Source of the DNA: Patescibacteria group bacterium
GTDB lineage: Bacteria; Patescibacteriota; Dojkabacteria; J137
DNA: 64,000 nucleotides
Direction of reading: 5' to 3'
NCBI GenBank assembly: GCA_016861265.1
Contig: BOLA01000001.1
Coordinates: 598,229 to 662,228, forward strand
In this document: positions 31,336 to 64,000 of the stretch, one piece after another
Numbering within the stretch: the first letter of the stretch is position 1
How the letters are laid out: each line of letters begins with the position of its first letter
Notes under the pieces: model-generated
The model's database searches: none
Seen by the model: only the letters and a program-made list of their open reading frames with translations
What the model was told of the DNA's origin: nothing
Program-made: the position numbers and the translations under genes

Positions 31336-34300
31336 ATGAAAAGTGTATCAATAATAGTTACTATAGTAATGAACTCACCCCTACTAAGTTATAAAAAAAG
31401 AAAAAAACGAAATCGAAATATTATTCTTTCTAGTATAGTAATCACTTTTCTTTCTATAGCTATTTTCTCAAGATTATTCGCGGCCACAAGTATAAGTTGG
31501 AATTTTGATGTCGCAGAAGATTATTTATCCTCAGATAACAACAAGGTTCAAATTAATAACGGAGATGTAACTTTAAAACAAGTCGTTACAAACCTATCTG
31601 AAGATACAGATATCGAATTTAATGATGGAGAACATATTAATACAATGTCTTCAAATAATAAATTGACATTAGGGGGAACTAAATCTCCCGTTCCCTCAAA
31701 TTCGTCTGGACTTGTTGCGCAATATAGGGCTGAGAACAATTGGGATAATGAAAAGGGTACCGGTAGTGTATCTGTTGTGGGATCACCAACCTTTGTGGCA
31801 GGGCAGATAGGTACAGGGGTAAGTTTTGACGGTACTGATGATCAGGCAATCGTTAATTCTAATTTTGGTCTTACCACCACAAATATTTCTGTTGAGTTAT
31901 GGGTTAACCTAGATTCAATCTCAGAAAACGGATCATTTGTGAAAATTGGTGGAACGGGAAATGGTGGAATTGCTGTCGGGGTAGGTTCAACTACATTCTT
32001 AGATGGTGGTAATAATCTGATTCTTTTATATGAGGGAGTTCGATGGATTAATACAAATGTAAGGATTGGAACAGGCTGGCACCATATTGTAATGGTGGTT
32101 AATAGCTCCGGAGTTCCTTCCGCATATATAGATGGACGTCTGATTGGAACCTTTGCCGGTACTAATGCAATTGCCCCTGTAAACAACAATGTTTATATTG
32201 GAGGTTATTTCGCTTCAGGTGCTAGGTTTGCTGATGCAATCATAGACGAAGTATCGATATATAATATTGATTTAAGTGGGTCGCAGATATTTCAAAATTA
32301 CCAGAAAGGAGCCGCACTCATAGGAGAGTATACTTCTAGTGTAATTGATTCCAATGCAACGGATGGAGTGCCGTGGGATTCCTTAAATTGGATACCTAGT
32401 GGCCCCTATGGAGTTGAACTCCCAAATAATATGCAAACTGAAACAACTTACCCAACCGGTAATGTAGATATGAGTGGAAATCTTGCTCTTTGGCATTTCA
32501 ATAATAACGGACAAGATAGTAGTGGTAATAATAGAAATGGGACTTTGGCAGGCAACGCTCAATATGTAACCACTTCTAAATTTGGTAGTCACTCAGCTTC
32601 TTTCGACGGAGCTGGAGATTATGTTTCTTTAGGCAATAATGCATTAGGTAATTTAGGGAATTTTACACTTTCTGCATGGATTAAAACTCCAGACACAAAT
32701 ACCTCCAGATATATTCTCACTGAATTCAGACCAAGCTGCGGTGATGCAATTTGGTATATTGATGCAAATGGTATTCCTACGTATATAGATGGTGCAGTAA
32801 CATTAAATAGTGGAGGTACGAGTGTAGAGGATAATAAATGGCATCATATTGTTTACGTATATGGTGGAACCTATGGGAAGCATTACATCGATGGAGTTCC
32901 TCAGCCAAACTCCACCGGAGCAATTTGGAGAAGCACTTGCAGTGCTGCTGACGTAAGAATAGGAATTGATGCGCAAGGAGCAGGATCATTTTTAGGTAAT
33001 ATTGATGAATTAGCAGTATTCAATAGGGCATTAACCCAAGAGGAAGTATCAGCGATATATAACCGTGGTGGGCAAACAGTTAAATACCAAGTGAGAAGCT
33101 GCAACGATAACCTATGCGATGGGGAAAATTTTATAGGTCCTGACGGATCACCAAATACTTACTACTCAATAGAAAAAAATCAGGTTACTTCAAATCCATC
33201 CATAGAATTCTCTAATTTAAACAACAACAGATATTTTCAATATAAAGTAACATTAGAGGCCCATACACAAAATGCGCTTCCGACTATAGGTTCAATAAAT
33301 TTATCTTACGAAAGTTATGCAACTGATAATCCGTATGTAAACCCTGTTTCCTCCATAGACTTGGGCGGCATTCCAAAAACAATTTCTAAATTTTGTGAAG
33401 GCACTCTTAATGGTTCAAATGAATGTACTACAACAAGTGTAAAGCCATTGGGTACGGAAATTCATTATCAAATTTGTAATGATTTAGTCTCTAACTGCGA
33501 TATAAACAATACATGGAAGTACTGGGACGGTGATAGTTGGGAAAACGCAGATAATACAGAATTCAATACTGCCTCTGACGTTTCAAGTAATATCGAGCAG
33601 TTCATTCCTTCTTCAAGATATTTATCGTTTAAATCATTCTTAAGTTCAGGAGGCAATTCTACACCAACACTAAAAGATGTTTCGGTCTCCGCTACTTTAG
33701 ATGGAATCCCACCAGTAACGAATGCATCAAATATTCATTCAAATGGTTACAACAGTAATGACTGGATAAGAAATAAACCCTTAATAGAATGGAGTGAAGG
33801 AGAAGATGATCAAGAAGGGGTAGGTCTTCTGGGTTACTGTGTGGCACTAGACGAATCTAACCTGGGAAGTAGTCAGAATTTAAACCCTTCAACAAGCGCT
33901 GGAGTTTTACAGAGTCTAGATGATGGAGTTTCTCAACAATATTGTCCATACATTGTTACGGGTACAAGCATTAATTTGAATTCAATTCAGGGGCTGAATC
34001 TAGTTACAAATAAACAATATAATTTTTCAATTAAGGCGGTTGATATTTCCGGCAATATTTGGAATGGAAGCAGCGAGGATTATCAAGACTTATTTACATT
34101 CCGATATGATGGTACTGCACCTAATAATCCTGCTTTTATTTCAATGCCAAGTAATTTTATACAAAGTAAGGATGTAACAATAACCTGGCCAACGGAAGGA
34201 GCAAATGGTGCAAGCGATGTAGGTTCGGGATTGGCCGGATTACAATATAGGATAGGGCAGAATGGTGTATGGTATGGAGATCTTCACAATGGCAATCAAG

Positions 34301-47762: not shown

Positions 47763-48986
47763 ATGTTTGGAAATAATAGAAATAAGAAAATAGTGAGCAG
47801 AAGCTCAAACTATCATTTGGCCATCGATATCGGTACTGAATTCGTTAAATCTGCTGTATTTAAAGAAGAGGATAACGAAGTTATTATATTGGGCTACAGT
47901 AGAATAAAACAAAGAGAGTCATCAATGTATGCGGCATTTATAATTAATTTGCAGGCGGTTATTGAGGCATGCGACAGAGGAGTTGGGGAAGCAGTTGCTC
48001 AGGCAATGGAAAAAGAGGGAGATAAATTTGTAATTCCTAACGATGTAATTATAGGTATTGCCGGTGAGTTGGTTCACGGAGTAACAATTATGGTTAATGT
48101 GGAAAGAGACAATCACGAAGCTAAGATTACACAAAAGGAGATCGACAAATTCGTAGAAAAAGTAAAAAAGTATACATTTTCTAGTACAGTGGAAGAAATC
48201 TCGCGAGAAATGGGGTTAAAAGCAAGTCAAGTTATAGAAGTAAATACAACCATTAACAGTGTTTATATTGATGGAATGAAGGTTATAAACCCATTAGGTT
48301 ATTCCGGTAACGAATTAGTTTATAAGGTATTTTCAACATTTGCACCCAAGATTCATTTAGATTCAATTAACCAAGTAGCCGATGCTTTAAATTTAAGATT
48401 AAGCAAGATTGTAGTAGAGCCCTATTCACTAGCGGTAGGCTTAAGAAATATGAAAGATCAAGATGCAAATGCCATAATTATTGATGTCGGAGGTGGTACT
48501 ACCGACGTTGCGTTGGTGAGCAATGGAGATATTATAGGTACAAAAATGTTTGCCATTGGCGGTAAGGTTTTTACAAAGAGAGTGCAGAGGGAGCTTGGCG
48601 TTGATTATGAAGAAGCTGAAAAAATAAAAATAGATTACTCGAATGGTGCTGTTTCCAAAGATGTCGACCTTAAATTAAGTAAAGCTTTTGAGATGGATAT
48701 TTCAACCTGGTTAACCGGAGTTGAAATAGCTTTAGAAAGTTTTAACGATGTAAAAGAGTATCCAAGTCAGATTTATATTTGCGGTGGTGGAGCATTGCTG
48801 CCTGAAATTCAGGAGGGTCTAATGACTTACCCATGGCTACAGACCTTGAATTTTAAAAAGTTTCCAAAAGTGAGCTTTATATTCCCTAATGCGTTGAGTA
48901 GTGTTTTGGATAAAACTAAGAGTGCTACTTTACCTATGGATGTAACTCCGCTAGCATTAGCTAGAATGCATTTAGAAAATTTATAA
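47763..48986 (+). CDS. second actin-fold ATPase of the FtsA/PilM family (not the ftsA at 8701)
   Basis: YHLAIDIGTEFVKSAVF (phosphate-1), IIDVGGGTTDVALVSNGDIIGTKMFAIGGKVFT (phosphate-2/adenosine) and the C-terminal actin-fold blocks. 407 aa. Confidence 0.7.
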   Translation: MFGNNRNKKIVSRSSNYHLAIDIGTEFVKSAVFKEEDNEVIILGYSRIKQRESSMYAAFIINLQAVIEACDRGVGEAVAQAMEKEGDKFVIPNDVIIGIAGELVHGVTIMVNVERDNHEAKITQKEIDKFVEKVKKYTFSSTVEEISREMGLKASQVIEVNTTINSVYIDGMKVINPLGYSGNELVYKVFSTFAPKIHLDSINQVADALNLRLSKIVVEPYSLAVGLRNMKDQDANAIIIDVGGGTTDVALVSNGDIIGTKMFAIGGKVFTKRVQRELGVDYEEAEKIKIDYSNGAVSKDVDLKLSKAFEMDISTWLTGVEIALESFNDVKEYPSQIYICGGGALLPEIQEGLMTYPWLQTLNFKKFPKVSFIFPNALSSVLDKTKSATLPMDVTPLALARMHLENL

Positions 48987-49001: not shown

Positions 49002-51146
49002 GTGTCGATTTCGTCATCCGAAAAAATTTTTATTGACCCTAGGGAGGAAATAACCTTTATTGTTGAACGTCTTTTAAAGGCGGAAAAAGACAGGGTTATT
49101 CTTGTCGTTCCTCAAAATTCCTTGCTACTAAGTAGTTTAGTTAGTATAGATATTCTTTTTAGAAAATTAGTTAGAACAAAGAAACTTGCGATTATTGTCA
49201 CAGAAGATGAATATGGTAAGTCTATTGCCTCTAAAGCAGGATTTGTAGTAGTAGATAAAGTAAGTCAGATTACAAATGAGCAGTGGAACCTAGGAAATAA
49301 CCGAAAAATTTCCATAAAAGAAATCTTAGACGAGAGAAAGAAGGCTTTGTTGGCCAATATTAGTGGTGAAAGTCATGACATAGAAGAGCTGCCTGAAATT
49401 CCAGGTACCGAAGATATAGAAGAGTATCAGGTTACGGAGCAGGAAATGGACGAAGTTGTAACGAAAAGTGTGGGATTGCCATACGAAGAGGTTTTAGAGA
49501 AGAAAGAAGAGATTCTTGATGAAGTAGAAGATGCAGTGGAGTTGGTTAATAATCAAACTGATGTAATAGAAGAATCACCTGTGGTACCTGAGGTGCCAAC
49601 TGCGGAAGATTTAGAAAAACAGGAACTAGAATCTTCTCTAAAAAAGTACGCAAAGCCAAGAAGAGAGGTTAAGGAAGTTGAATTAGACGGTATAAAGCTT
49701 GTGTCTGGCGGTGATATAAAGAGTTACATTGATTCTAAAGAAAGTGCTAAAATGGCAGATAGTAACAATTCTTTCACTCAAATGACAGACATAAATATAG
49801 ATAGAAAAATTAAAAAGGTGGGCTCTTCGTCCTTTACAGGAAAAGACTTTACAAAAAAAGTAACAGACAAAGGTGGTCTCGGGGCTCTGTTTTCGAGATT
49901 TAGCTTGAAACGAAGAAACCCGGATTTTAGAGACGAAAATGACTTTATAAAAAAAAAGAATAGAAAAAAAATTCTAATTACTACTTTTGTATTATTTATT
50001 CTATTGTTCGCTGTAGGAGGCTATGTGTTAGCGTTTCAGGTATCAACAGTAGATATTACTTTAACATTAAGAGCGCAAGATGTAAGCACATCTGCAACTG
50101 TATTGTTAAGCACTAGTGCGGAAGAACTCAGTCTGGAGAGTCCAATTACAATTCCTGCAAAGGAATATTCAATACCAGCCGATAATTTAAGTATTTCTAA
50201 GACCGGGACTGCTGATGGCAATAGTAAGAGAGGCGCTAAAGCAAAAGGGGTCGTAACAATTTATAATCTTACAGCTGAAAGTGTTACATTGGGAGCGGGA
50301 ACAAAGTTTAAAAATGTTACAAATGGATTAATTTATGTTTCCACAACTGAAGTTGTATTAGATCCGGCTACTGTCAGTTCAAATATTAAAACTCCAAGCA
50401 CTAAAGATAATGTTGCACTAGAGGCTGAAAATTTTGGACCTCAATTTAACATCGAAGTTTCTGATAAAACAAGATTCAGCATTGAAAGTTATAGTACAGA
50501 GGAAGAAATGAGTGCAACTGCATTCCAATCATTTCAGGGGGGAACTGAAGAGGCATTTACATCTGTCTCGCAAGAGAATTACGATAAATTAAAAGAAACA
50601 ATTGTACCGGATTTAAAGAAACAAGGGTTAGACAGGTTAAAATCCCTAACCGAGAGTGGATACCAGTTAATTGAAGGTACAGTTACATACGATGAAACAA
50701 AAACCCCTGAGTCTTTGCCAAAGGTTGGAGAAGAGGCAAAAGATAAGACTTTTAATTTAACAGTTCAGATAGGTATTAAGGGACTTGCAGTTAAAACGAG
50801 TGATCTAACAGAAGCTGTCAGTGCTGTTTTAAAGAATAATGCTCAGAATACGAATGGTGGAAATCTTCAGATTGATGACATAATGAATCCGCAAATCGAT
50901 AAGGTAGAAAAGAATGGAGATGATTATGTAGTAACTGTTTCTTCTAAAGGTTCGGTTAAAACCCAAATTACTCCTGAGCAAATGAAGAAAGATATATCTG
51001 GATTGACTATTCAACAGGCAAATGATTACTTTAGATTAATCGATTATATTCAGGATTATAGAGTGAATTTTAATCCAGGATTTGTACCTGACAGTATAAA
51101 ACGTGTCCCTTCCGATACATCACGAATTAATATTAAAACAAAATAA
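49002..51146 (+). CDS. bitopic membrane protein (714 aa): cytoplasmic N-terminal domain plus acidic linker, single TM, large extracytoplasmic C-terminal domain
   Basis: GTG start 16 nt after the FtsA/PilM-like gene. TM at about residues 330-352 (ILITTFVLFILLFAVGGYVLAF). No recognisable family. Confidence 0.5.
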   Translation: MSISSSEKIFIDPREEITFIVERLLKAEKDRVILVVPQNSLLLSSLVSIDILFRKLVRTKKLAIIVTEDEYGKSIASKAGFVVVDKVSQITNEQWNLGNNRKISIKEILDERKKALLANISGESHDIEELPEIPGTEDIEEYQVTEQEMDEVVTKSVGLPYEEVLEKKEEILDEVEDAVELVNNQTDVIEESPVVPEVPTAEDLEKQELESSLKKYAKPRREVKEVELDGIKLVSGGDIKSYIDSKESAKMADSNNSFTQMTDINIDRKIKKVGSSSFTGKDFTKKVTDKGGLGALFSRFSLKRRNPDFRDENDFIKKKNRKKILITTFVLFILLFAVGGYVLAFQVSTVDITLTLRAQDVSTSATVLLSTSAEELSLESPITIPAKEYSIPADNLSISKTGTADGNSKRGAKAKGVVTIYNLTAESVTLGAGTKFKNVTNGLIYVSTTEVVLDPATVSSNIKTPSTKDNVALEAENFGPQFNIEVSDKTRFSIESYSTEEEMSATAFQSFQGGTEEAFTSVSQENYDKLKETIVPDLKKQGLDRLKSLTESGYQLIEGTVTYDETKTPESLPKVGEEAKDKTFNLTVQIGIKGLAVKTSDLTEAVSAVLKNNAQNTNGGNLQIDDIMNPQIDKVEKNGDDYVVTVSSKGSVKTQITPEQMKKDISGLTIQQANDYFRLIDYIQDYRVNFNPGFVPDSIKRVPSDTSRINIKTK

Positions 51147-53382: not shown

Positions 53383-53709
53383 ATGAGTAACTTACTTTTT
53401 GTCTTTTACTGGTGGTACGTAATACTAGTAAAAGAATTCTGGCGAAGCTATGTATTGGGTAGATTAGTTTATAACTTGAATCTAACAAATACTTTGCCCA
53501 TGGCAAAGCATATATCGGATCCATTGTTCCAGGACGATTCCGGTATCGGCAAATCTTTCGGTTTTATTATTAGATTTATTTGGATAGGAATTGGATCTTC
53601 TATTAGTGTAATCGTAACAGTTCCCTTCTTCATTTTTGGAATATTTTTATTGGTATTGCCCTTATTACCGTTAATACAATTAGTTACATACTTAAATACA
53701 TTATTATGA
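53383..53709 (+). CDS. small polytopic membrane protein, 4-nt overlap with (likely translationally coupled to) the Clp-like ATPase
   Basis: Three hydrophobic helices. ATGA overlap with the next start. Confidence 0.4.
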   Translation: MSNLLFVFYWWYVILVKEFWRSYVLGRLVYNLNLTNTLPMAKHISDPLFQDDSGIGKSFGFIIRFIWIGIGSSISVIVTVPFFIFGIFLLVLPLLPLIQLVTYLNTLL

Positions 53710-56285
53710 ACGGTAAGGTACTACTAGCAAAATACAAAAATTCAAGAATATTCGTAGACTTTGGTTCACTTACATTCTTTAAGGGAGATAAACATGCTCT
53801 TTACAAACTTGAACAGAATACAGGAACCTTATTAGAAATATTTACAGCACTTCTTTTTGGAATACCCATTGTTATTCAAATCTTGAATGGAGAACTTAAT
53901 CTCTTGAATTTTTTGATACCCGATAATCTACTAAACTATTTGCCGTATATAGGTATCTACACATTTATTTTTGCAAGATTTTTAAAGCGAGATAGGAATA
54001 AATTCGATGAGGCGGTGAAAAACTATAATTTGCTTGCTGTAAATAAGAAAATTGAAGCGGGTGCTGACATGGAACTTACTGTAAATCACTACATTGACTT
54101 TGAAACACTTACAATATTAGATAAAGCTTTGGCAGATAAGGAAAGAGCTTTTATAGTTACATTATGTAAACTACTAACAGAAGATACAGAAATTGAACAC
54201 TTCTTAGCAAACAGATTAGGTATTAATAGAGATAAGTTTATAGAAGTTGTAAACCATAATAGTCACAATGCAAATTTCACACTAAATAATGCTTATAGAA
54301 CTTTATTTCTTTACTTGTTCGATGAAGCCCTAAAGCTTGAATCTAATACTATTAATAAGTTCGTATTATTCTTTGTTTTAAATAAATACTTTTTGAAAAA
54401 TATTTATTTTGACCTAGGTGTAGCAGAATTGGAATTAGAGGGTTTGAGAATTTGGTTTAAGAATGAAACAAAACAAAGAGAGTACTATATTAAGTGGGAA
54501 AGACTATCAAAATTCAAACCAAAAGGAGATGTTAATAGGGCATACACATCTAGACCTACACCAGTATTAGATGAGTATGCGGAAGATTTAACAAGTCAGG
54601 CTGCACTTGGTTTATTCATGTTGTCCGTGGGCAAGGATCAAGAATTGAATAGGGTTGTAGAAATTATGGAAAGAGACAAGGCGAGTGCATGTATGATTCT
54701 CGGAGATCCGGGCGTTGGAAAAACCAGATTCTTAAGGCATTTAGCAACAAGAATGGTTGTGGAAGATATTCCAGGTAGACTCTATGATCACAGATTGTTA
54801 TCCATTGATTTAAATAAAATCCTTACTAAAATTGGTACAGTTGATTCGTTTAAGCAGGTTCTTCAGAGAATTTTTGAAGAGGTTCGTTACTCAGGAAATG
54901 TGATTCTAGTACTTGAAGAATTTAGTCAAATACTTAACATAAGAGAAGAATCGAAACTGGAGGTTGTTAATTTGATTGTAAATGCAATAAATAATTTAAA
55001 CCTAAGATTAATTGCTACTTCTAATAATTCAAGTTATTCAAAATATGTTAAACCGTTAAAATCACTTTCCGCGTTGTTCGATGTTGTAGAGCTTAAGGAG
55101 CCATCTTCAAATGTAGCTCTACAAATTCTAATCGATGAGGTTCCAAGAATTGAGAAAAAATACAAAGTGAGTGTAAGGATTAATTCTTTAAAAAGAATTG
55201 TAGAATTTGCACCAAAGTTCGATCAGGACAGAGTAATGCCCGATAAAGGTATAGATCTATTTGAAGAGGCCTGTTTAGCAGCAAAGAATAGAGGGTTAAC
55301 ATTCCTAGATGTGTCAACGGTTGATGAAATTCTTTCTGAAAAAGTAGGTGTAAAAGTAGGTAATTTATCTGAAGGGGAAAGTCATACATTAATGGCTATG
55401 TCGGAACGAATGCATGACAGAGTTATTGGGCAGAATGAGGCTGTAGATGCTGTCGCATCTGCAATTAAAAGATCTCGTTCAGGACTGACAAATACTAAAA
55501 AACCAATTGCGTCATTTTTATTTTATGGACCTACTGGTGTTGGGAAAACAGAAGTGGCTAAAACTTTGGCCGATGTCTACTATGGCAGTGAAAACTTATT
55601 GATCAGACTAGACATGTCGGAATATCAGGAAGATCAAAATCTTAATAGAATTATTGGATATACCGATGACAAAGGCAATTTTATAGGCGGATACTTGACT
55701 GAGTCAGTCAGATCAAGACCTTTCTCGTTGGTGTTGTTGGACGAAATAGAGAAGGCTAATAAAAAGGTCTTAGATCTATTCCTACAAGTTTTAGATGAAG
55801 GTACTTTAACTGATGGTTTAGGTCGAAAGGTAGATTTTACTAATACCATAATAATTATGACTTCAAATGTAGGTTCTGACTTAATTGCGAAAGAAATCTA
55901 CGAAGGTAAAAAATACCACGATGTGGAAAAAGATGTGACAAATAAACTAAGGGAATCTTACAGGATTGAATTTTTAAACAGATTTGATAAATTAATAATG
56001 TTTAGACCGTTATCAAAAATTGAGATTGAGCAGATTGTGATGCTGATGTTGAAAAAAATAGATGATAATTTAATGCAAAAAGGAATTGGTATTTCCTGGA
56101 ATGAGGCAACTTTGGTAGAATTAGCAAACCTTGGTTATAGCGAGATGTTTGGTGCAAGAGAATTAAAAAGAATTGTGCAGGAAAACATAGAGAATAAATT
56201 AGCAGATTTAATAATTCAGGGTAAACTACGAAGCGGTACAGAAGCAGTTTTTAATGGATTAACTGTACAACAAGTGGTAAATTAA
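53706..56285 (+). CDS. Hsp100/Clp-family double AAA+ ATPase (ClpA/ClpC-type, no long M-domain) with an unusual N-terminal region containing hydrophobic segments and Clp_N-like repeats
   Basis: D1: Walker A (MILGDPGVGKTRFLRHLA), EDIPGRLYDHRLLSIDL, NVILVLEEF, PDKGIDLFEEAC. Linker: HDRVIGQNEAVDAVASAIKRSRSGL. D2: FLFYGPTGVGKTEVAKTLA, LIRLDMSEYQED, SLVLLDEIEKANKKVLDLFLQVLDEGTLTDGLGRKVDFTNTIIIMTSNVGS, C-terminal GARELKRIVQ. The N-terminal 280 aa hold two hydrophobic helices and ELTVNHYIDFETLTILDKAL-type Clp_N repeats. No [LIV]G[FL] ClpP-docking tripeptide is visible after the TSNVGS block. Confidence 0.75.
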   Translation: MNGKVLLAKYKNSRIFVDFGSLTFFKGDKHALYKLEQNTGTLLEIFTALLFGIPIVIQILNGELNLLNFLIPDNLLNYLPYIGIYTFIFARFLKRDRNKFDEAVKNYNLLAVNKKIEAGADMELTVNHYIDFETLTILDKALADKERAFIVTLCKLLTEDTEIEHFLANRLGINRDKFIEVVNHNSHNANFTLNNAYRTLFLYLFDEALKLESNTINKFVLFFVLNKYFLKNIYFDLGVAELELEGLRIWFKNETKQREYYIKWERLSKFKPKGDVNRAYTSRPTPVLDEYAEDLTSQAALGLFMLSVGKDQELNRVVEIMERDKASACMILGDPGVGKTRFLRHLATRMVVEDIPGRLYDHRLLSIDLNKILTKIGTVDSFKQVLQRIFEEVRYSGNVILVLEEFSQILNIREESKLEVVNLIVNAINNLNLRLIATSNNSSYSKYVKPLKSLSALFDVVELKEPSSNVALQILIDEVPRIEKKYKVSVRINSLKRIVEFAPKFDQDRVMPDKGIDLFEEACLAAKNRGLTFLDVSTVDEILSEKVGVKVGNLSEGESHTLMAMSERMHDRVIGQNEAVDAVASAIKRSRSGLTNTKKPIASFLFYGPTGVGKTEVAKTLADVYYGSENLLIRLDMSEYQEDQNLNRIIGYTDDKGNFIGGYLTESVRSRPFSLVLLDEIEKANKKVLDLFLQVLDEGTLTDGLGRKVDFTNTIIIMTSNVGSDLIAKEIYEGKKYHDVEKDVTNKLRESYRIEFLNRFDKLIMFRPLSKIEIEQIVMLMLKKIDDNLMQKGIGISWNEATLVELANLGYSEMFGARELKRIVQENIENKLADLIIQGKLRSGTEAVFNGLTVQQVVN

Positions 56286-56304
56286 ATTAAATAATCAAAT
56301 TTAT

Positions 56305-56685
56305 ATGAATAAAAAAAAGTTGATCTCAATAATTGTCTTAGCCCAGAGTGTTTTAATGGCATTGCCAGTAGCAGCTCAAGGACTGACTAATGTTAGTCAG
56401 AATTATGCAATTCCTAACCCTACAAGATACAGTAGTCTGGAAGACATAATTAATGCATTGACTTCGCTAATTAGACCTGTCTTTATTATTACATTTGGTG
56501 CAATGATACTTTATGGAGGATGGGTTAGATTAACATCTCAAGGTAATCCGGATAAAGTTAAGTCAAGCTCGCAAATCATAGTTGCAGCAATTGTAGGTTT
56601 TGCAATTGCAGTGTTTGCACCTACAATTGTTGACTTTGCGGGTAAATTGCTAGGTATTCAAGGTGGATTAATACAGAATCAATAA
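56305..56685 (+). CDS. pilin-like protein paralog 1 (VirB2/TrbC-like topology: signal peptide, two hydrophobic helices joined by a short polar loop)
   Basis: Signal (LISIIVLAQSVLMALPVAAQG). Helix-1 (VFIITFGAMILYGGWVRL), loop (TSQGNPDKVKSSSQ), helix-2 (IIVAAIVGFAIAVFAPTIV). Confidence 0.55.
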   Translation: MNKKKLISIIVLAQSVLMALPVAAQGLTNVSQNYAIPNPTRYSSLEDIINALTSLIRPVFIITFGAMILYGGWVRLTSQGNPDKVKSSSQIIVAAIVGFAIAVFAPTIVDFAGKLLGIQGGLIQNQ

Positions 56686-56686
56686 T

Positions 56687-57298
56687 ATGAAACTAAAAGC
56701 TTTATTATTCATAGTAATTACAATAATCCTTAGTTCGGGTATTAAGTTATCGGCACAGTCTACAGACTGTATAGCCCCATATTTTATCCCTGATGATTGT
56801 AGTGTGCCTTATGTACCTGGTAAATCAGGGGGTTATACTGCAGATTTAAATTGTCAGATCGTTCGAATTACTAAACCTGGAACCGAGGAGGCTAAATGTT
56901 GTCCCAATATTTGTGTAAATGAAAATGGTGATAGGGTAAGTGCCCAGCTTCCGTCCGAAATTACGCAGACCGAGGTATTTGGAACTACTATTAGAATTAA
57001 TCCGGATAATTCAGGGACGATTATAAATATACTGTTTACAACAATATTGGGTCTTGTTTCTGTTTACGCAATTGTGAGAGGTATTTATGTTACTGGAGTA
57101 AAAAGACCAATGGCTATTACACCCGACCAAATCGCGGAAATTAATAAAGAACTTACAAATTTAATAATAGGTGTAGTTATTTGCTGGGGCTTTATAATCT
57201 TAATTCAAGTAGTCGCCAACCTATTAGGAGTAGGTCAGTTAAATAATCTAGATATTTCCGGCGGAGAATCTGGAGGAACAATTATTACTATTAAATAA
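56687..57298 (+). CDS. pilin-like protein paralog 2 with an N-terminal Cys-rich extracytoplasmic module
   Basis: Signal, 7 Cys in the first 80 mature residues, then helix-1 / KRPMAITPDQIAEINKELTN loop / helix-2. Confidence 0.5.
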   Translation: MKLKALLFIVITIILSSGIKLSAQSTDCIAPYFIPDDCSVPYVPGKSGGYTADLNCQIVRITKPGTEEAKCCPNICVNENGDRVSAQLPSEITQTEVFGTTIRINPDNSGTIINILFTTILGLVSVYAIVRGIYVTGVKRPMAITPDQIAEINKELTNLIIGVVICWGFIILIQVVANLLGVGQLNNLDISGGESGGTIITIK

Positions 57299-57858
57299 TG
57301 AAGACTTTATTGCTAACAATAATATTAAGCATATTCTTCTTTGCTCCTGTGTATGCACAAGAAAATTCAGGCGGATTAGCAAATCAGACGGTCACATGCG
57401 TTAACTGTACAATAGATAACAATATTGGGCTAGAGGAAATTAGAGTTCCTGTTTTTGCTAGCTTTATTGATTTCAATACTGAAAATGCGAGCATATTTAG
57501 CTGGGTATCGTTCATCGGAGCTTTAGCTACCGTAGGATTGGTTATTTTCTGGATTTTTCTTCTGGTTAAAGCTGGTGTAAGAGGATTGCAGAGCCAGGGC
57601 AACGCAGATACATTGGCTGAGGCATTTAAACAGGTTCAATCGGTACTTATTGGAGCTGCAATCTCACTGTTCTTCCCCCTAGTACTAAGTATTATAGGTG
57701 TATTCTTTGGAATTGGCACTATCTTTAGTTGGCCTAAAATGTTTCAGTTTTGCGATGAGTCGTCTGGTGTTCAATTTTATTATCAGGCTCTGTTAGCTGA
57801 CGATGTAAAAGGAGATAAGTCAGCCGCAGAGGCTAAATGTAACCCAATAGGAGAATAA
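57298..57858 (+). CDS. pilin-like protein paralog 3 with a Cys-containing C-terminal tail
   Basis: Signal. Helix-1 (VGLVIFWIFLLVKAGVRGL), loop (QSQGNADTLAEAFKQ), helix-2, then a C-terminal tail with 2 Cys. Confidence 0.5.
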   Translation: MKTLLLTIILSIFFFAPVYAQENSGGLANQTVTCVNCTIDNNIGLEEIRVPVFASFIDFNTENASIFSWVSFIGALATVGLVIFWIFLLVKAGVRGLQSQGNADTLAEAFKQVQSVLIGAAISLFFPLVLSIIGVFFGIGTIFSWPKMFQFCDESSGVQFYYQALLADDVKGDKSAAEAKCNPIGE

Positions 57859-57859
57859 T

Positions 57860-58291
57860 ATGAAAAAATTAATATTGCTAACTTTTATAATCGCTTTTTC
57901 GGTATTGCCTTTCAGCATTAAGGCTGCTACTGCTTCAGATGTCTTGCCATGCGATCAGTACGATACATCGGCCTTTGATGCGTGTGGGGATGTTAACGGA
58001 CAAGTTACTGATCTTATAAAGTTCGCTTTGGCAGCAGCTTTCGGAGCAATTATATTATATGGCATTTTCTTGATAATTAAGGCTGCACTTACTATAATTA
58101 GGAGTAATGGTGATCCGGGCCAAGTAGAGGCCGGTACAAATATTATAAGAGGTGTTTATATTGGCATAGGAATCATCTTTATAGGAATAGTAGGGCTTAT
58201 TATTGTTATTGCATTCTTTGGTGCAGGTGGTATATTGAATACAGCAGTAAATACACCAGGTAATACTGTAATACCAATAATTACAAATTAA
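57860..58291 (+). CDS. pilin-like protein paralog 4
   Basis: Signal. Helix-1 (AIILYGIFLIIKAALTIIRS), loop (NGDPGQVEAGTN), helix-2 ending AFFGAGG. Confidence 0.55.
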   Translation: MKKLILLTFIIAFSVLPFSIKAATASDVLPCDQYDTSAFDACGDVNGQVTDLIKFALAAAFGAIILYGIFLIIKAALTIIRSNGDPGQVEAGTNIIRGVYIGIGIIFIGIVGLIIVIAFFGAGGILNTAVNTPGNTVIPIITN

Positions 58292-58317
58292 ATTATTTAT
58301 TTTATTAAAATACTCTT

Positions 58318-58806
58318 ATGTTTAGAAATAAGAAACTTGCAGGAATCATGGTAGGAGCATTTTTATTAGTTGCACCATTGGTTTCTCCATTGTTAACAGT
58401 TCAAGCTCAATCAAGAAACTTGATTTGTACTGTTTTCCCATTTATTAATAGTGTTGGAGCATTTGGAATCAGCTCATTGTGCGGTGATGTTAATGCAACA
58501 AGTACATCTGATACAATCAAAAGTACTTTTAACTTAATTGTGTCTTTAATATTTGTAGCAATAATCATTTTCTCAATCTACGTGATTATTAGAGCTGCAA
58601 TTAAATACATTAGATCAGAAGGAGATCCAGCAAAAATTGAAGAGGCTCAAAAGGCTATCAAGTCGGTGTTTATCGGTATTGCTGCATTATTTGTAGGCTT
58701 AATCGGTATTATCATTATTATTGCATTCTTTGGTGCAGGTGGTGCATTAACTACAAATCAGGTTAATAACCAGGTAAACCCACTATTGAATTCAATCTTG
58801 AATTAA
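58318..58806 (+). CDS. pilin-like protein paralog 5 (closest paralog of no. 4; shares IRSxGDP...AFFGAGG)
   Basis: Signal. Helix-1, loop (IRSEGDPAKIEEAQKAIKS), helix-2 ending AFFGAGGAL. Confidence 0.55.
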   Translation: MFRNKKLAGIMVGAFLLVAPLVSPLLTVQAQSRNLICTVFPFINSVGAFGISSLCGDVNATSTSDTIKSTFNLIVSLIFVAIIIFSIYVIIRAAIKYIRSEGDPAKIEEAQKAIKSVFIGIAALFVGLIGIIIIIAFFGAGGALTTNQVNNQVNPLLNSILN

Positions 58807-58824
58807 GTTAATTAGAATTTTATA

Positions 58825-58851
58825 AAGCCCAGGCCAAGCCTGGGCTTTTCA
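58825..58851 (+). terminator. rho-independent terminator (AAAGCCCAGGC-CAA-GCCTGGGCTTT) closing the five-gene pilin-like operon
   Basis: Perfect 11-bp stem plus a T-rich tail. Confidence 0.7.
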
Positions 58852-58916
58852 TTTCTTCTTGATTAGCCTTAACCTTTAATCTATAGTGTAATAAGTATTA
58901 ATATTAATAATTTCTC

Positions 58917-59810
58917 ATGGGAAAGAATAAAAAACTCCTTTATCTGCTACTCATACTTAATCTGATTTTTGGTCACGTAGCGATTGTTAGTGCACAATTA
59001 CAGTCTTTCGATTTTTCAGGGAATAATGCTGAAAGTTATCAATGTTTTGATAAGGAAACAGGAGAGAACCTAACAGATGAAGATACTGAGCCAAGTGGTG
59101 TTAAATTAAATGTGCAAGGTCCTGATGATTTTGGTAATTTCTATTGTTGTGGGGGCACTAATTCGGGTTATACACCAGTAGGGTTAGATTGCGCTGCGGG
59201 TCAAACAAAGATCATTGCTCAACTAAAACCACCTGCGCTACAGCAAATAGAAGTTTGGTTCGTAAGAATTTTATATGCAATTTGGGGACTTGTAGCATCT
59301 CTATCTTTTCTATTTCTAGTAAAACTTGGTTATGAATATATTATCTCAAGAGGAGATCCTACCAAGATTACTGAAGTTAGAAAGAAGATTGTGAATTACA
59401 TTATTGGTTTTGCACTGGTTTTCCTGGCTGTTCCTATTTTGACTACAGTATTCCGTCTTTTAGGAATAAATACAAATGCGCAATGTTACAACGTAAATAT
59501 GCCAGGGTTTCAATTCTTTTATAGCTCTCTATGTACCGATCCTAAAGGGGTAATTGCAGCAAAATTTGCCTCCAACCCATGTACGGCATTTAATGACGGA
59601 TCAGATCCTGAAGGCATAATCTGTAAAGGAACTGGCTATGAAGGTGTTACGAGAGGTTGTGGAGTTATTAGGGGTATTTATAATATTTCATTAACTTGCG
59701 ATGTTCAAACAGGTGACACTGCAGCAACATGGTGCAAAACCAGAGAACTTACTTTGCCGCTGTTGGGACTCGTTTACTGTGATTCATCCTGTAACCCTAC
59801 AAGGTGTTAA
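58917..59810 (+). CDS. pilin-like protein paralog 6 with Cys-rich N- and C-terminal extracytoplasmic modules
   Basis: Signal. Cys-rich N-module, helix-1 (ILYAIWGLVASLSFLFLVKLGY), loop (ISRGDPTKITEVRKK), helix-2, and a C-terminal domain with about 12 Cys. Confidence 0.5.
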   Translation: MGKNKKLLYLLLILNLIFGHVAIVSAQLQSFDFSGNNAESYQCFDKETGENLTDEDTEPSGVKLNVQGPDDFGNFYCCGGTNSGYTPVGLDCAAGQTKIIAQLKPPALQQIEVWFVRILYAIWGLVASLSFLFLVKLGYEYIISRGDPTKITEVRKKIVNYIIGFALVFLAVPILTTVFRLLGINTNAQCYNVNMPGFQFFYSSLCTDPKGVIAAKFASNPCTAFNDGSDPEGIICKGTGYEGVTRGCGVIRGIYNISLTCDVQTGDTAATWCKTRELTLPLLGLVYCDSSCNPTRC

Positions 59811-59819
59811 AAGTTATAA

Positions 59820-61316
59820 ATGTTTAGATTTAAATCATTTAAAACTAACGGTTCTGTGATTAACTTTAAGGACTCAAGTCTTAGTCTGGAGTCCTTAAAC
59901 TCATTTCTTGCGAATCTAGAAAATCTATCATTAAATTCAGAAATTGAGTTTAATGTTGAAAATTTAGACGGCACAATTGCAAATTATAAGTTGATTAACG
60001 ATGGAACTATAAAGGCGTATAAAGACAATAAAAGTATTGTTGAAAATGATTTTTATAGGTTAGTCAAAAATAATTTTCATCTTGAATTGACTCCCCAAAT
60101 TATGCAGGCACGAATAGTGCAATACAATTCTCAGATAAGGGAAACGATTAGTAAATTATCTATACCAATTTCGCCTGACTTGGTAAATAAAATCGCCGAG
60201 GCAAAAAATACTATTGAATCTGTAAAAAATTCAATCGAATCCAGCCTAAGTGAGGAACAAAAAGATAAATACTCGAGGCTCACAGAGCTAAATTCAAGAT
60301 TGAATTCGATTCAGAATCAGATAGATTCTTTTCAAGGAAGTAAAAAGAGTAAAGAGGATATTACCACTAATATTAAAAAATATAATACCGATAAATCCAC
60401 TATAAAACAGATGATGGAATCTGTGGGTCTACTTATTAAAACAAGAGATGAATTAAAGCAGAAAGTGCTAAGTTATAACCATTTAATACAAGATGCTGAC
60501 AAGGTTAATCAGCTAAAACAGCAAAAAATGCAATTTCAGAATTCTCAACTCTTTACAAAATCACAGTCTGCAATTAATAGTTCCGAAGATGATTCTGCTA
60601 GCTCAAACTCAAAATTCAAACTTAAACTTAGCATAATTCCTATTTTGTTATTCCTAAATATTGCAATTTCTATTGTAGGCTTTCTTTACTCTTACGATTT
60701 TAACGTTCTAGTCGTAGCGGTAGTATCAACTGTTATCTTAATGACAGCTTATATTGTCTCTAAATTCTTTAGCGATTCATTGGAAGACCTGAATGAAGAT
60801 TCAAGTAGAGCAGAGGTAATTGATATTAAGCAAGAATCAAATCCATTGGCTAAAGAAGACCCAAATGCCCAATTATTCATAAATTCTGCCTGGGTTAATG
60901 CATTAAACAACGAACTGAATGCAGTAGAACAGAATATTCAAAAAAACCTTAATGGAAAAGACTACGAGTCAATAAAGAATGAATTACAACAAATTGAAAA
61001 TTTAATAGTGCAGGAAGAAAAGAAATTAACGGATTTATCCGCTAATTCAATTACTTCGGATGAATACTATAAAAAGAGAAGGGAGGCAGATATTCTTAAA
61101 ATAGAGCGAGAAAATCTTGAATTTGGACTTAAGATTGATTCAAGCCTAAACGACCAGAGAATATCTGCCGAAAAAACATTAAAAGAACTCTTGGACAAGC
61201 AAGCATTTGCCAGTAAGTTGTCTATGAGTTTCCCAGTATTTTTAGTAAAAACGAGTGAAATTCAGCACACAAACATTGATTTATTGAATCAGATAGTACT
61301 AGTTCTGTCCAATTAA
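59820..61316 (+). CDS. bitopic coiled-coil membrane protein (498 aa; TM near residue 280)
   Basis: Long heptad-rich N- and C-terminal regions flanking LSIIPILLFLNIAISIVGFLY...VVAVVSTVILMTAYIV. Confidence 0.45.
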   Translation: MFRFKSFKTNGSVINFKDSSLSLESLNSFLANLENLSLNSEIEFNVENLDGTIANYKLINDGTIKAYKDNKSIVENDFYRLVKNNFHLELTPQIMQARIVQYNSQIRETISKLSIPISPDLVNKIAEAKNTIESVKNSIESSLSEEQKDKYSRLTELNSRLNSIQNQIDSFQGSKKSKEDITTNIKKYNTDKSTIKQMMESVGLLIKTRDELKQKVLSYNHLIQDADKVNQLKQQKMQFQNSQLFTKSQSAINSSEDDSASSNSKFKLKLSIIPILLFLNIAISIVGFLYSYDFNVLVVAVVSTVILMTAYIVSKFFSDSLEDLNEDSSRAEVIDIKQESNPLAKEDPNAQLFINSAWVNALNNELNAVEQNIQKNLNGKDYESIKNELQQIENLIVQEEKKLTDLSANSITSDEYYKKRREADILKIERENLEFGLKIDSSLNDQRISAEKTLKELLDKQAFASKLSMSFPVFLVKTSEIQHTNIDLLNQIVLVLSN

Positions 61317-61330
61317 CGTTATAATTAGAT

Positions 61331-62107
61331 ATGTCTAATAACGCCAATGCAAGCAATAATCAGGAAACTTCAAAGAAAGAGGCGGTATTTCCACAGCCAG
61401 TTTATCCAGGAAGTATGTCAAACCCGTTTAATGGTTATTACTACTATCCCACGAACATGCAACCTCCCAAAAACAATAGAGACTATGTTTCGAAGATGAG
61501 GCTGCAGGAAGCTGATAAGATTGTACCTAAACAATCAGGGCTGCCTTGGTCCTCAATAATACTAAAGCCCAATATCGTTTTCGAAACTCAAGATGCAAAT
61601 GAGAAAGTCTATGTATTGGTAAGAGCACATTGGATAACAAATCTAGGATGGTTTCTAAGGAATTTGTTCATGGCACTTTTGCCGTTTATTGTACTATCTC
61701 TGTTAGAAAATTTTGGAATCAGAATCGATATAAGCTTTATAAGTAATAAGGCATTAACCATTGTAGGACTGTTGTATTATTCGTTTATATTTACAAGTAT
61801 TGTAAGTAACTTCATTGATTGGTATTTTGATCCCTTTATAGTTACTGACCAGCGTATAATGGACTACGACTATAAACCATTCGGTAATTACAGTGTTTCT
61901 GAAGTCTCTCTACAAGATATTCAAGATGTAAAGGAAAGATCTGCGGGGTTACTTGGTGACATTTTTAATTATGGCAATGTATACGTGTACAGTGCAAGCG
62001 ACGCATCTGAAATGATTTGCAAACATGTTCCATCTCCAACAAGAGTTAGAGATATTATTACAGATTTATCTAATGTAGCAAAAACTTATAAATATGATAG
62101 TGTCTGA
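61331..62107 (+). CDS. membrane protein with a bacterial PH-like (bPH_2/YdbS-like) domain
   Basis: Pro/Asn/Tyr-rich N-terminus, two TM helices (LFMALLPFIVLSLL; LTIVGLLYYSFIFTSIV) and a C-terminal region (DWYFDPFIVTDQRIMDYDYKPFG...) typical of the YdbS/DUF304 arrangement. Confidence 0.45.
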   Translation: MSNNANASNNQETSKKEAVFPQPVYPGSMSNPFNGYYYYPTNMQPPKNNRDYVSKMRLQEADKIVPKQSGLPWSSIILKPNIVFETQDANEKVYVLVRAHWITNLGWFLRNLFMALLPFIVLSLLENFGIRIDISFISNKALTIVGLLYYSFIFTSIVSNFIDWYFDPFIVTDQRIMDYDYKPFGNYSVSEVSLQDIQDVKERSAGLLGDIFNYGNVYVYSASDASEMICKHVPSPTRVRDIITDLSNVAKTYKYDSV

Positions 62108-62315
62108 ATTTTTTACACCAGAAATAATAGAATTTATAAAAATAATAGTCATTATTATTGGTTTGGTTCATCTTTTAGCAGGCTTTATATTAGTTTTTCA
62201 GACCTTTAGAATGAACCGAATTATTAAGACTTCAGGCTTTCCTGTATTTAACCTTATTGCAATCGCTTATATTGCAGTTCTTCTAGCTACACTTATTTTG
62301 ATAATTACAGCATAA
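62094..62315 (+). CDS. small two-helix membrane protein, 14-nt overlap with the upstream gene
   Basis: 73 aa, two hydrophobic helices. Confidence 0.3.
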   Translation: MIVSEFFTPEIIEFIKIIVIIIGLVHLLAGFILVFQTFRMNRIIKTSGFPVFNLIAIAYIAVLLATLILIITA

Positions 62316-62371
62316 TTTAGATTTTCTTTTTTGATATACTGTTAAAAAGATAGTTAATCTAATATTTTTGT

Positions 62372-64000
62372 ATGCAATTAAGAGCTGATTTTTTGGTAGG
62401 AAAACAAACCCCTAATTCCTGGTCAGGAGTTTATGGCTTTAAGCCCGATGATTCAATTGAACCACTAGAATTGTTCGCAATTATTAAACTTGCATCGCAA
62501 AGTGATGAAACGGGCCTAGAACCACTTGCGAAAATGTTCCTAGACGAACTTCAGAATTACTTATTTTCAGAGGGTAAAGAAGGTGATTACATAATTAGAT
62601 TAGAGAATGCTGTGTGGAAAATGAAGTCCAAAATGGAGGTTCTTCTATCTTCTGATGAAAGATATTCACAAAATGGTTTAGATATTGAAGTTGCGCTAAC
62701 ACTATTTGACCGAAATTTTTTATACGTAGGAGTTGTAGGCGAAAGCAAAATTTATATTCAAAGAGGAGACAGATTTGTAGAGCTATCAAAGGGTCTAACT
62801 GATGGGAATATGATGGGCTTTCTGAAGACAGGTAGCTTAGAGTTAGAACCTGGTGATAGACTAGCCTTATCCACTAGTTCGGCAGCAGTGGCCGGGGAAG
62901 CCAGTATTGAATCTGCAATAGGTAATCTAAATGTAGACAATTTATCGTCCTTATCAAATTCTGAAGGTGTAGGTATTCTTCTACTTGCCGATGAGAAAGA
63001 TACATGGGCCGAAAAAGCCTTACCAACCCAAGAAGAATTCGTAGAAGAAACTACTGCACAGGAAAATGATGGTTCTGCAAAATATATACCAATTCAAGAA
63101 GAAGATTTTGATGATACACTAGAAACACCTACCGAGGTTGTAGATGAAGGATTAGAGCTTGAGCCTCAAGAAGAGCATTTACCTGTTAATCAAGAAGATA
63201 CTCTTGCAGAAATAGAATCTGTACAGGAGCTAAATACAAATTTAGATAACCCAGAGACTCGGTCTGAATTGCCAGTAGGGAGACAATTTATAAATAACTT
63301 CAGAAACAAACTGGTGACAGGCTTTAACACTGGAAAAACACATATGGGAAATCTAAAGGTTAAAGTTCAAGAAAAAAGAAATGCCCAGGAAAATGAAGAT
63401 ACAGATAATGAACAAAATATTGAAGAAGCCTATGCGAATTCCAAATATGAACAACCTGATGCCTCTGAGCAAAATAAAGCAGTTACAATAATTAAAAATT
63501 TTATTGGCAGTATTAGAAATTTCGCTAACAGCAAGCTAATTCCTTTTTTTAAAAAAAGTAATAAGACTTATATAAAATATCTAAGAGACTTTGTTCTATT
63601 AATTGCGGGTCTACTGAAAAAACTGCTGATTTGGTTTAAAAAAGAATTTATTGGAGGTGGAGTAGACGATAGAAGGGATATTTTTGCAAAGGCTAAAAAA
63701 AGAAAAAGAAACAGGCTAATTCTTGTGGCTCTGGTTGTGGTACTGGGAGTATTAATAATTTCTGCAATAAACAATAGAAATGCGCAGCTGGCAGAAGAAG
63801 CAAGAATTGAAGAAATAAGAACTTCCGTAGATAGTTATAAATCTCAGCTTGATAATCTTGTTAAACAAGCAAACGCCAATCTGGATGACGCTAAAAAGAC
63901 AACTTTATTAGATCAGCTGGACAAATTAAATAATTCTTTAGAAGCTCAGAAGAAGGATGGTATGTATTTAGATAGTATTGCTTCGCAGCAGGACCAGATT
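62372..64000 (+). CDS. PP2C/SpoIIE-like (likely degenerate phosphatase-fold) domain protein with a single TM and an extracytoplasmic coiled-coil region; 3' end beyond the window
   Basis: Uninterrupted reading frame from ATG 62372 to the window end (over 540 codons), absent from the ORF track because no stop lies inside the window. The N-terminal domain has PP2C-like blocks (ALTLFDRNFLYVGVVGESKIYIQRGDRFVELS; GDRLALSTSSAA). An acidic linker, a TM (LILVALVVVLGVLIISAI) and then heptad repeats follow. Confidence 0.5.
   Translation, partial: MQLRADFLVGKQTPNSWSGVYGFKPDDSIEPLELFAIIKLASQSDETGLEPLAKMFLDELQNYLFSEGKEGDYIIRLENAVWKMKSKMEVLLSSDERYSQNGLDIEVALTLFDRNFLYVGVVGESKIYIQRGDRFVELSKGLTDGNMMGFLKTGSLELEPGDRLALSTSSAAVAGEASIESAIGNLNVDNLSSLSNSEGVGILLLADEKDTWAEKALPTQEEFVEETTAQENDGSAKYIPIQEEDFDDTLETPTEVVDEGLELEPQEEHLPVNQEDTLAEIESVQELNTNLDNPETRSELPVGRQFINNFRNKLVTGFNTGKTHMGNLKVKVQEKRNAQENEDTDNEQNIEEAYANSKYEQPDASEQNKAVTIIKNFIGSIRNFANSKLIPFFKKSNKTYIKYLRDFVLLIAGLLKKLLIWFKKEFIGGGVDDRRDIFAKAKKRKRNRLILVALVVVLGVLIISAINNRNAQLAEEARIEEIRTSVDSYKSQLDNLVKQANANLDDAKKTTLLDQLDKLNNSLEAQKKDGMYLDSIASQQDQI

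Follow-up and report, generated by a model that had tools for sequence, protein, structure and literature searches.

Predicted PP2C-fold pseudophosphatase of receptor-like build with an NHL propeller, and an ATPase-less SbcE-type relic, in a pilin-adjacent gene string of Dojkabacteria-type Patescibacteria

This analysis concerns a 64,000-nucleotide stretch of the chromosome of a Patescibacteria group bacterium (the whole stretch is called the window; GenBank contig BOLA01000001.1, forward-strand positions 598,229 to 662,228), and in particular the genes at its 3' end. These lie at the distal end of a chromosomal gene string that is conserved among Dojkabacteria-type Patescibacteria, and they encode four predicted inner-membrane proteins (Table 1). 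From position 53383 to the end of the window every gene lies on the plus strand and nearly abuts the next. An original prediction made from the sequence had described three co-directional, tightly packed open reading frames (ORFs) here, of 498 amino acids (aa), 258 aa and a third running out of the window, and all three exist; a conserved 73-aa ORF between the second and third, that is, between the bPH and PP2C-like genes, had been overlooked. The last ORF starts at 62372 (plus strand) and leaves the window at 64000. Its remainder was recovered from a contig (L001) matching the visible 543 aa at 98.9% identity (537/543), where the full-length protein has 845 aa (L001:11042-13579). We regard the structural description of this module given below as very probably correct; it covers the folds, the membrane topology, the lost catalytic residues and the synteny.

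Table 1. Features of the window, with positions counted from its first nucleotide
Feature	Position	Strand	Details
714-aa bitopic protein, beta-rich ectodomain	49002..51146	+	One transmembrane (TM) helix, aa 324-342; Lys/Arg 7 upstream vs 1 downstream, N-in
Upstream context syntenic with the module	53383..59810	+	108-aa membrane ORF, ClpB/ClpA-like AAA+, six pilins (Pfam, NCBIfam); same gene order in 10+ loci
Terminator-like hairpin, strong	58824..58848	+	Between pilin 5 and pilin 6; 11-bp stem, 7 GC pairs, T-rich tail
498-aa protein, predicted ATPase-less relic of a membrane-anchored SbcE/YhaN-type (AAA_27) SMC-like protein	59820..61316	+	
TM hairpin of the 498-aa protein	60627..60782	+	aa 270-288 and 296-314 (Kyte-Doolittle); AlphaFold helices 272-291 and 294-321
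Invariant motifs EDPNxQLFINSAW and ITSDEYYKKRRExDILKIEKENLEF	60855..61120	+	Second cytoplasmic helical arm, family-specific
258-aa two-TM protein with C-terminal bPH domain	61331..62107	+	TMs ~aa 107-130 and 141-162, bPH ~aa 164-243 (hydrophobicity scan, orthologue alignment)
73-aa two-TM DUF5657-like ORF	62094..62315	+	Overlaps bPH gene by 14 nt; PF18901 E 4e-4, 20.8 bits vs cut-off 25
Cytoplasmic PP2C/PPM-fold domain, predicted pseudophosphatase	62372..63001	+	aa 1-210; binuclear metal site lost
Acidic linker, variable length, low conservation	63002..63544	+	aa 211-391; column conservation 0.09-0.19 in 124 homologues, many alignment gaps
Conserved juxtamembrane segment	63545..63715	+	FFKKSNKTY..., amphipathic stretch, WFKKEFIGGG, basic cluster; conservation rises again
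Single TM helix, N-in/C-out	63716..63772	+	aa 449-467, Kyte-Doolittle 2.99
Start of ectodomain, helical stalk	63773..64000	+	ORF runs ~300 aa further as NHL beta-propeller

The original prediction had assigned the N-terminal region of the 845-aa protein to a PP2C/SpoIIE-like fold, and this assignment holds for the first 210 aa. AlphaFold, given 15 sequences, modelled residues 1-215 (predicted local distance difference test score, pLDDT, 90.8; predicted template modelling score, pTM, 0.88) as the PPM beta-sandwich with flanking helices, and a profile of 134 family sequences compared with PstP and tPphA gave an hhalign probability of 94.8%. On the modelled structure the PPM/PP2C fold of this domain is unambiguous. 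Conventional searches told a different story: neither the isolated domain nor the full protein matched a PP2C or SpoIIE family in Pfam or NCBIfam, the isolated domain not even at E<=10 (Pfam), and HMMER profiles built from 15, 18 and 58 homologues found no PPM protein among PDB sequences, the N-terminal domain retrieving only vimentin/keratin noise. Among the 58 members, weak Pfam matches were limited to PP2C_2 in three (best E 0.066) and PP2C in two (best E 0.04). The similarity therefore fails at the level of HMMER significance, and it is the profile-profile and fold comparisons that overturn this failure.

Loss of catalytic residues goes well beyond what had been proposed. In the hhalign register to PstP, across the 134 aligned family sequences, PstP D25 falls at family position 18 (Ser in 79, Ala in 37), D38 at position 39 (Ser 51, Arg 32, Lys 22) and the aspartate of the SDG motif at position 169 (Ser 60, Pro 24), while D229 aligns with no residue, lying in a gap beside G199 (gap or Gly). 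All four ligands of the two-metal M1/M2 site are thus absent throughout the family. Only D118, the third-metal aspartate of the GDSR motif of PstP and tPphA, has a counterpart, at family position 124 within the motif GESK (Glu 93, Asp 18, Asn/Ser/Lys/Gln/Ala 21); the replacement of this aspartate by glutamate was noticed correctly from the sequence. The third-metal position is therefore acidic in most members (111/134), as Glu rather than Asp, and its partner ligand is gone. Because the whole binuclear metal centre is missing family-wide, and not the GDSR aspartate alone, the domain is predicted to be a pseudophosphatase, an idea now more strongly supported than when it was raised. Other residues are well conserved, namely W17, G102, D104, E106, Y118, G123, R131, D144, G154-S155 and D162, together with an alpha2 helix motif, LExxxWKMKSK. 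They include an acidic set (D104, Asp/Glu in 128 of 134; E106, Asp/Glu/Asn in 115; E124, Asp/Glu in 111; D144, Asp in 123). Several conserved residues would lie on the former active-site face, consistent with a conserved binding pocket. A hydrophobic stretch at aa 109-127 in some homologues was considered as a second TM helix and rejected, as it corresponds to the buried beta4/beta5 core of the PP2C fold.

Beyond the linker, conservation returns in the juxtamembrane segment, where invariant or near-invariant residues (L001 numbering) are T402, F425, E428, G431, G433, D436, R437, R449, N450 and R451. The TM helix that follows is flanked in the window copy by nine Lys/Arg in the 15 aa upstream against two downstream; family-wide the means are 6.3 and 3.7, with upstream exceeding downstream in 104 of 122 sequences, and one TM helix occurs at a similar position in 109 of 139 members. 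By hydrophobicity scan and the positive-inside rule, the protein has the order of PstP: cytoplasmic PP2C domain, single TM helix, extracellular C-terminal domain. The ectodomain, of median length 375 aa, had been described as large and helical or coiled-coil. That description fits only its first ~75 aa; beyond the window end comes a ~290-aa NHL beta-propeller. Against PDB, family profiles reached E values of 1e-16 to 7e-29 with the Pizza designs (derived from PknD); those for the PknD sensor (1rwi) were 3.5e-8 to 3.5e-13, LRP YWTD propellers were matched too, and Pfam NHL was found in 22 of 58 members (best 4.2e-7). A propeller of the six-blade NHL type is predicted from these matches.

An exhaustive search with the N-terminal domain returned 127 clusters (50% identity representatives), almost all of 705-916 aa and with the single-TM layout, none of which carries a protein name or a Pfam family; no description of a PP2C-NHL family was found in the literature searched. 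The PP2C-TM-NHL protein is a previously undescribed receptor-like family that combines known kinds of parts. PstP (Rv0018c, M. tuberculosis) is likewise membrane-anchored by one TM helix behind an N-terminal cytoplasmic PP2C domain; D25, D38, the SDG-motif Asp and D229 of PstP are all replaced in the 845-aa protein, which further differs in its NHL ectodomain, its long acidic linker and its lack of a significant Pfam PP2C match. The PknD sensor, a six-bladed NHL propeller (1rwi), is also the extracellular part of a bitopic receptor; in the present protein a dead PP2C fold takes the place of the Hanks kinase and a ~75-aa helical stalk precedes the propeller. TAB1 and the C-terminal domain of RssB are PP2C-fold proteins known to be non-catalytic. 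Both are soluble and cytoplasmic, whereas the 845-aa protein is membrane-tethered and coupled to an ectodomain; with it, the few PP2C-fold pseudoenzymes would gain a bacterial member that is bound to the membrane. Two further observations came from the searches. One 5688-aa protein (P0094) matches residues 37-95 (alpha1/alpha2) of the PP2C-like domain in nine separate stretches, probably as helical-repeat noise. In locus L030 (918-1997), a metagenome contig, the call for the PP2C-like gene is only 359 aa long and contains an internal stop; this short copy could be a pseudogene or an assembly error.

The 498-aa protein had been described as having a single TM helix and an external coiled coil. 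It has instead two hydrophobic helices about six residues apart, kept in 20 of 20 homologues and present as a helical hairpin in the AlphaFold model (pLDDT 79). The rest of the model comprises an alpha/beta domain at the N-terminus, a pair of very long helical arms and two strands at the C-terminus. With a TM hairpin the protein can therefore have no large extracytoplasmic domain. Proteins of Pfam AAA_27, the YhaN/SbcE family, are its homologues: against the AAA_27 proteins of two distantly related loci (L021 and L022), the 498-aa protein scored 96.3% (local) and 98.6% (global) in hhalign, its TM hairpin aligning with that of the intact L021 ATPase and its YYKKRRE motif with YLQKRRELDNLRFER of the intact homologue. 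On the 711-aa intact protein the global alignment spans residue 73 to ~620, and so lies outside the head motifs. Walker A, signature motif, Walker B and H-loop were not found in the 20 aligned homologues, the window copy has no Pfam match, and an SbcF-like Metallophos partner gene is absent from the corresponding slot in the window lineage. Invariant columns in the 20 homologues (D347, P348, N349, F353, N355 and T412-E434) define the family-specific motifs of Table 1. Judged by these alignments and the model, the protein is an ATPase-less, partner-less relic of SbcE/YhaN type, homologous to cytoplasmic SMC-like (structural maintenance of chromosomes) ATPases and with both arms in the cytoplasm. 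Since the P-loop, signature motif, Walker B and nuclease partner are lost, only a role as a membrane-tethered cytoplasmic scaffold would be possible.

Distant relatives have an intact Metallophos and AAA_27 (SbcF/SbcE-like) pair (L021:4090-7346, L022:506-3766, L026:4630-7956), with the pilin array on one side of it and the SpoIID/bPH/PP2C genes on the other. The intact AAA_27 proteins, of which that in L021 has a TM hairpin, occupy the slot of the 498-aa gene in these loci. The pair hints at a membrane function in DNA-end processing that was lost in the window lineage. In Bacillus subtilis the central domain of SbcE is hydrophobic and insoluble, and SbcE, which pairs with the nuclease SbcF, is recruited to the competence (DNA-uptake) pole (PMC2811018). 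Compared with this Gram-positive SbcE/YhaN and SbcF/YhaO pair, the 498-aa protein aligns over the coiled coil, the hydrophobic hairpin and a YxxKRRE motif, and differs in having neither Walker A, signature, Walker B and H-loop nor the Metallophos partner, and in its new invariant EDPNxQLFINSAW. Its ancestor would have been a membrane-anchored ATPase whose antiparallel coiled coil carried the TM hairpin at its apex, the present copy being a cytoplasmic scaffold tethered to the membrane, and it would document the decay of an SbcE-type SMC-like ATPase into such a scaffold.

The bPH assignment of the 258-aa protein stands, although the window copy lies just under the Pfam cut-offs (bPH_3, 22.2 bits against 23, E 2e-4; bPH_2, 15.5 bits against 22, E 0.02): at E<0.01, 10 of 14 orthologues match bPH_3 and 6 of 14 bPH_2 (best 1.4e-5). 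A two-TM hairpin followed by a bPH domain is shared with bPH_2/bPH_3 proteins of the YdbS/YdbT type, from which the 258-aa protein is set apart by its sub-threshold scores and a long, variable N-terminal tail rich in Pro, Asn and Tyr. The 73-aa ORF has an orthologue in the same slot in nearly every examined locus, and the L021 and L024 copies have unmarked PF18901 matches.

The last protein to enter the comparison is the 714-aa product of a gene further upstream, which had been grouped with the 498-aa and 845-aa proteins under one layout of cytoplasmic domain, single TM helix and extracellular coiled coil. Among 24 homologues of the 714-aa protein, nine match a GlxA beta-barrel and two Baseplate_J in the ectodomain, and there is a weak PDB match to GlxA-like secreted proteins. 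What remains of the layout is that the 714-aa and 845-aa proteins are both bitopic with the basic flank N-terminal; the ectodomains are beta-rich rather than coiled-coil and the 498-aa protein has a hairpin, so that the claimed common layout shrinks to two unrelated bitopic proteins. Immediately 5' of the 714-aa protein gene lies a second actin-fold, FtsA/PilM-like gene (47763-48986), in addition to canonical ftsA (8701-9987) and ftsZ (10167-11336) elsewhere in the window.

The surroundings of the module were compared in twelve genome loci and seven further metagenome loci. Upstream, in the window, the six VirB2-like pilin genes (PF18895 in Pfam/NCBIfam scans) occupy 56305-59810. In the relatives the conserved order runs from a ClpB-like gene (in some loci) through the pilins, the 498-aa gene or the SbcF/SbcE pair and a SpoIID-domain coiled-coil gene (again in some loci) to bPH, and then through DUF5657, PP2C-TM-NHL, SmpB and a small ORF to a DUF8128/VirD4-like gene. 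This order is kept wholly or largely down to ~24% identity of the N-terminal domain while the outer flanks differ between loci. Some loci deviate: L025 has SmpB in inverted orientation, L026 has no called bPH or DUF5657 gene, and what is sequenced of L024 and L025 shows no VirD4-like gene downstream of SmpB; in L024 the pilins are inverted and the flanks rearranged, yet the pilins still lie within ~10 kb of the module. Beyond the receptor gene, contig L001 continues with SmpB (L001:13576-14031, overlapping the receptor-gene stop codon by 4 nt), a 182-aa ORF, an 819-aa DUF8128 protein, a XerC/D-like recombinase, a DivIC-like gene and FtsH. The 819-aa protein carries VirD4/TraG/TrwB signatures (T4SS-DNA_transf, TraG-D_C, and TrwB_AAD_bind just above the cut-off). 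As read from the compared loci, this conservation favours an arrangement under selection, and it makes the link that had been drawn to the pilin-like array probable.

Taken together, these results give an even prospect to the reading that we prefer: by analogy with PstP and PknD, the 845-aa protein would act as a transmembrane sensor or scaffold, and not as an enzyme, beside pilin and ATPase genes. That it is a sensor or scaffold tied to the pilin and type IV coupling protein (T4CP) system is a more tentative proposition, possible but short of even likelihood. Several points weigh against the reading. The placement of conserved residues on the former active-site face comes only from the alignment to PstP and textbook PPM topology, and the conserved acidic set D104, E106, E124 and D144 could form a non-canonical metal site. 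A housekeeping gene, SmpB, sits inside the string, so that operon inertia may account for part of the conserved order, and the synteny argument loses weight if, as may be the case, every sampled genome comes from one class; for these two reasons the comparison of loci supports, and does not prove, a functional link of the module to the pilin system. Pfam and NCBIfam scans found no VirB4 or other core gene of a type IV secretion system (T4SS) in the window and gave no T4SS family for any of the four module proteins, T4SS-type matches being limited to the flanking pilins (PF18895) and the downstream DUF8128 protein.

The alternatives differ in how they treat the PP2C-like domain and its neighbours. 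The acidic positions D104, E106, E124 and D144, acidic in most of the 134 sequences, could mark the relocated site of an active phosphatase or other hydrolase, PstP-like and gated by the propeller, and the partly kept PPM motifs (GDSR, xDx, GD) and PstP-like architecture would fit; we consider this unlikely, as the four canonical M1/M2 ligands are absent family-wide, the central Asp (PstP D38) is replaced by Ser, Arg or Lys, TAB1 and the RssB C-domain, which are the nearest precedents for such losses, are non-catalytic, and the scan of window ORFs turned up no Hanks-type kinase. Very improbable, and largely refuted, is the picture of three same-layout proteins, each with one TM helix and an external coiled coil, as struts of an envelope-spanning pilus apparatus. 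All are membrane proteins adjoining a pilin array whose synteny is conserved, and the part of the last ectodomain visible in the window is indeed helical; but the 498-aa protein has a hairpin and cytoplasmic SMC-like kin, the 845-aa ectodomain is mostly propeller and that of the 714-aa protein of beta-barrel type, and the three share no common sequence or fold. The structural, envelope-spanning role once suggested is not supported; no match to a T4SS subunit family was obtained for the four module proteins.

Two further explanations detach the module from the pilins. PstP regulates cell-wall synthesis in mycobacteria, and a PstP/PknD-like regulator of envelope growth or cell division, placed beside the pilins by genome architecture only, would suit the FtsA-like, DivIC-like, FtsH, XerC/D-like recombinase and YidC neighbours, the SpoIID-domain gene of the relatives and the SmpB embedded in the string. 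We hold it to be doubtful, though with an appreciable chance, given that pilins stay within ~10 kb of the module even where flanks are rearranged and pilins inverted (L024) and that a VirD4-like ATPase follows in most loci. Rather improbable is that the genes are functionally unrelated and owe their order to common descent within one slowly rearranging lineage: every source genome with a name is either Dojkabacteria or a metagenome-assembled genome (MAG) auto-labelled 'uncultured Saccharibacteria', and the housekeeping genes SmpB and GroEL lie inside the conserved block, but the core order survives to ~24% identity while outer flanks differ, and genes overlap or nearly abut.

If the 845-aa protein is a sensor or scaffold, its NHL propeller may have a ligand outside the cell, for example a glycan on the surface of the host or of the cell itself, a peptidoglycan fragment or a component of the pilus. 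Inside, the dead PP2C domain would serve as a binding module, with the former active-site face and the alpha1/alpha2 helices as its most conserved surfaces, and might recruit or regulate a cytoplasmic partner, whether the ClpB-like AAA+, the VirD4-like coupling ATPase or the SbcE relic. Patescibacteria rely on other bacteria as hosts, and the few species in culture need their pilin arrays and T4SS-like genes to grow as epibionts. Widely conserved and in the same string as pilins and a VirD4-like ATPase, the PP2C-NHL receptor is a concrete candidate for a host-contact sensor or scaffold. A bolder joint reading, which we think unlikely, would make the whole string a VirB4-independent envelope machine moving DNA or protein between epibiont and host. 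It would bring together the membrane-anchored ClpB-like AAA+, the ordered set of six VirB2-like pilins, an SbcE/SbcF-type module for DNA ends (a scaffold here), a wall hydrolase of SpoIID type, the two membrane proteins bPH and DUF5657, the receptor with PP2C and NHL domains and the VirD4-like ATPase, with the propeller sensing host contact and the dead PP2C domain gating the ATPases without catalysis. Control of type VI secretion by PpkA/PppA follows an analogous regulatory logic. No paradigm would be changed unless the functional link were shown.

VirB2-like pilin arrays and T4CP genes far from virB4 are known for Patescibacteria (PMC12102498; PMC10633639, the S. epibionticum T4SS cluster). 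The window shares with these systems the six PF18895 pilins and the VirD4-like DUF8128 ATPase flanking the module, and differs in that no VirB4, VirB3, VirB6 or TrsD was found in the window and that a membrane-anchored ClpB/ClpA-like AAA+ stands at the head of the array. The PP2C-NHL, bPH, DUF5657 and SbcE-relic genes were not met in the portions consulted of the two T4SS accounts (PMC12102498, PMC10633639).

Several features of the neighbouring genes deserve mention in their own right. The ClpB/ClpA-like double AAA+ protein has 859 aa (with the preceding ORF, window 53383-56285), including an N-terminal region of ~280 aa that is not Clp-like and has a hydrophobic segment at aa 42-60. The 108-aa membrane ORF overlaps the start of its gene by 4 nt, and this pair always leads the six-pilin array in related loci, where VirB4 would be expected. 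The pilin paralogues keep the order 1-6, each with its own orthologue, across Dojkabacteria-type loci (to ~34% identity of the adjoining receptor gene), and are rearranged in the most divergent loci; pilin 6 is a Cys-rich protein of 297 aa with a long C-terminal extension. The hairpin preceding pilin 6 could be an attenuator separating the pilin array from the downstream genes. A plus-strand terminator scan from pilin 6 onwards found nothing comparably strong until after the VirD4-like gene, the sole other match in between being a weak 6-bp stem inside the bPH gene. SmpB lies directly 3' of the PP2C-like gene in nearly every examined locus, to ~24% identity, an odd and persistent coupling of a trans-translation factor with an envelope gene. 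In many relatives a gene for a ~580-aa SpoIID-domain protein precedes the bPH gene, following the SbcE-like gene if the locus has one (L007:7056-8852, L021:7470-9179, L022:4030-5763, L023:793-2541, L024:7381-9159); neither the window nor its close relatives have it, and the L021 copy also has weak coiled-coil-type matches.

The window as a whole has a uniform GC content of ~35% and holds ordinary chromosomal genes (ftsA, ftsZ, sigma-70, IleRS, RNase Y, YidC, L25, LexA, GroES/EL). A mobile-element origin of the region, suggested by a nearby tyrosine recombinase, was considered and rejected: this XerC/D-like recombinase recurs in several of the syntenic loci, and the GC content is uniform. Related contigs come from MAGs labelled Candidatus Dojkabacteria or, by an automatic label, 'uncultured Candidatus Saccharibacteria', and the same strain occurs in further public assemblies, one of them a human gut metagenome contig. 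The window also encodes a predicted surface protein of 1658 aa (31336-36312) with Laminin_G_3, purple-acid-phosphatase-N and fn3 domains, which is possibly an adhesin.

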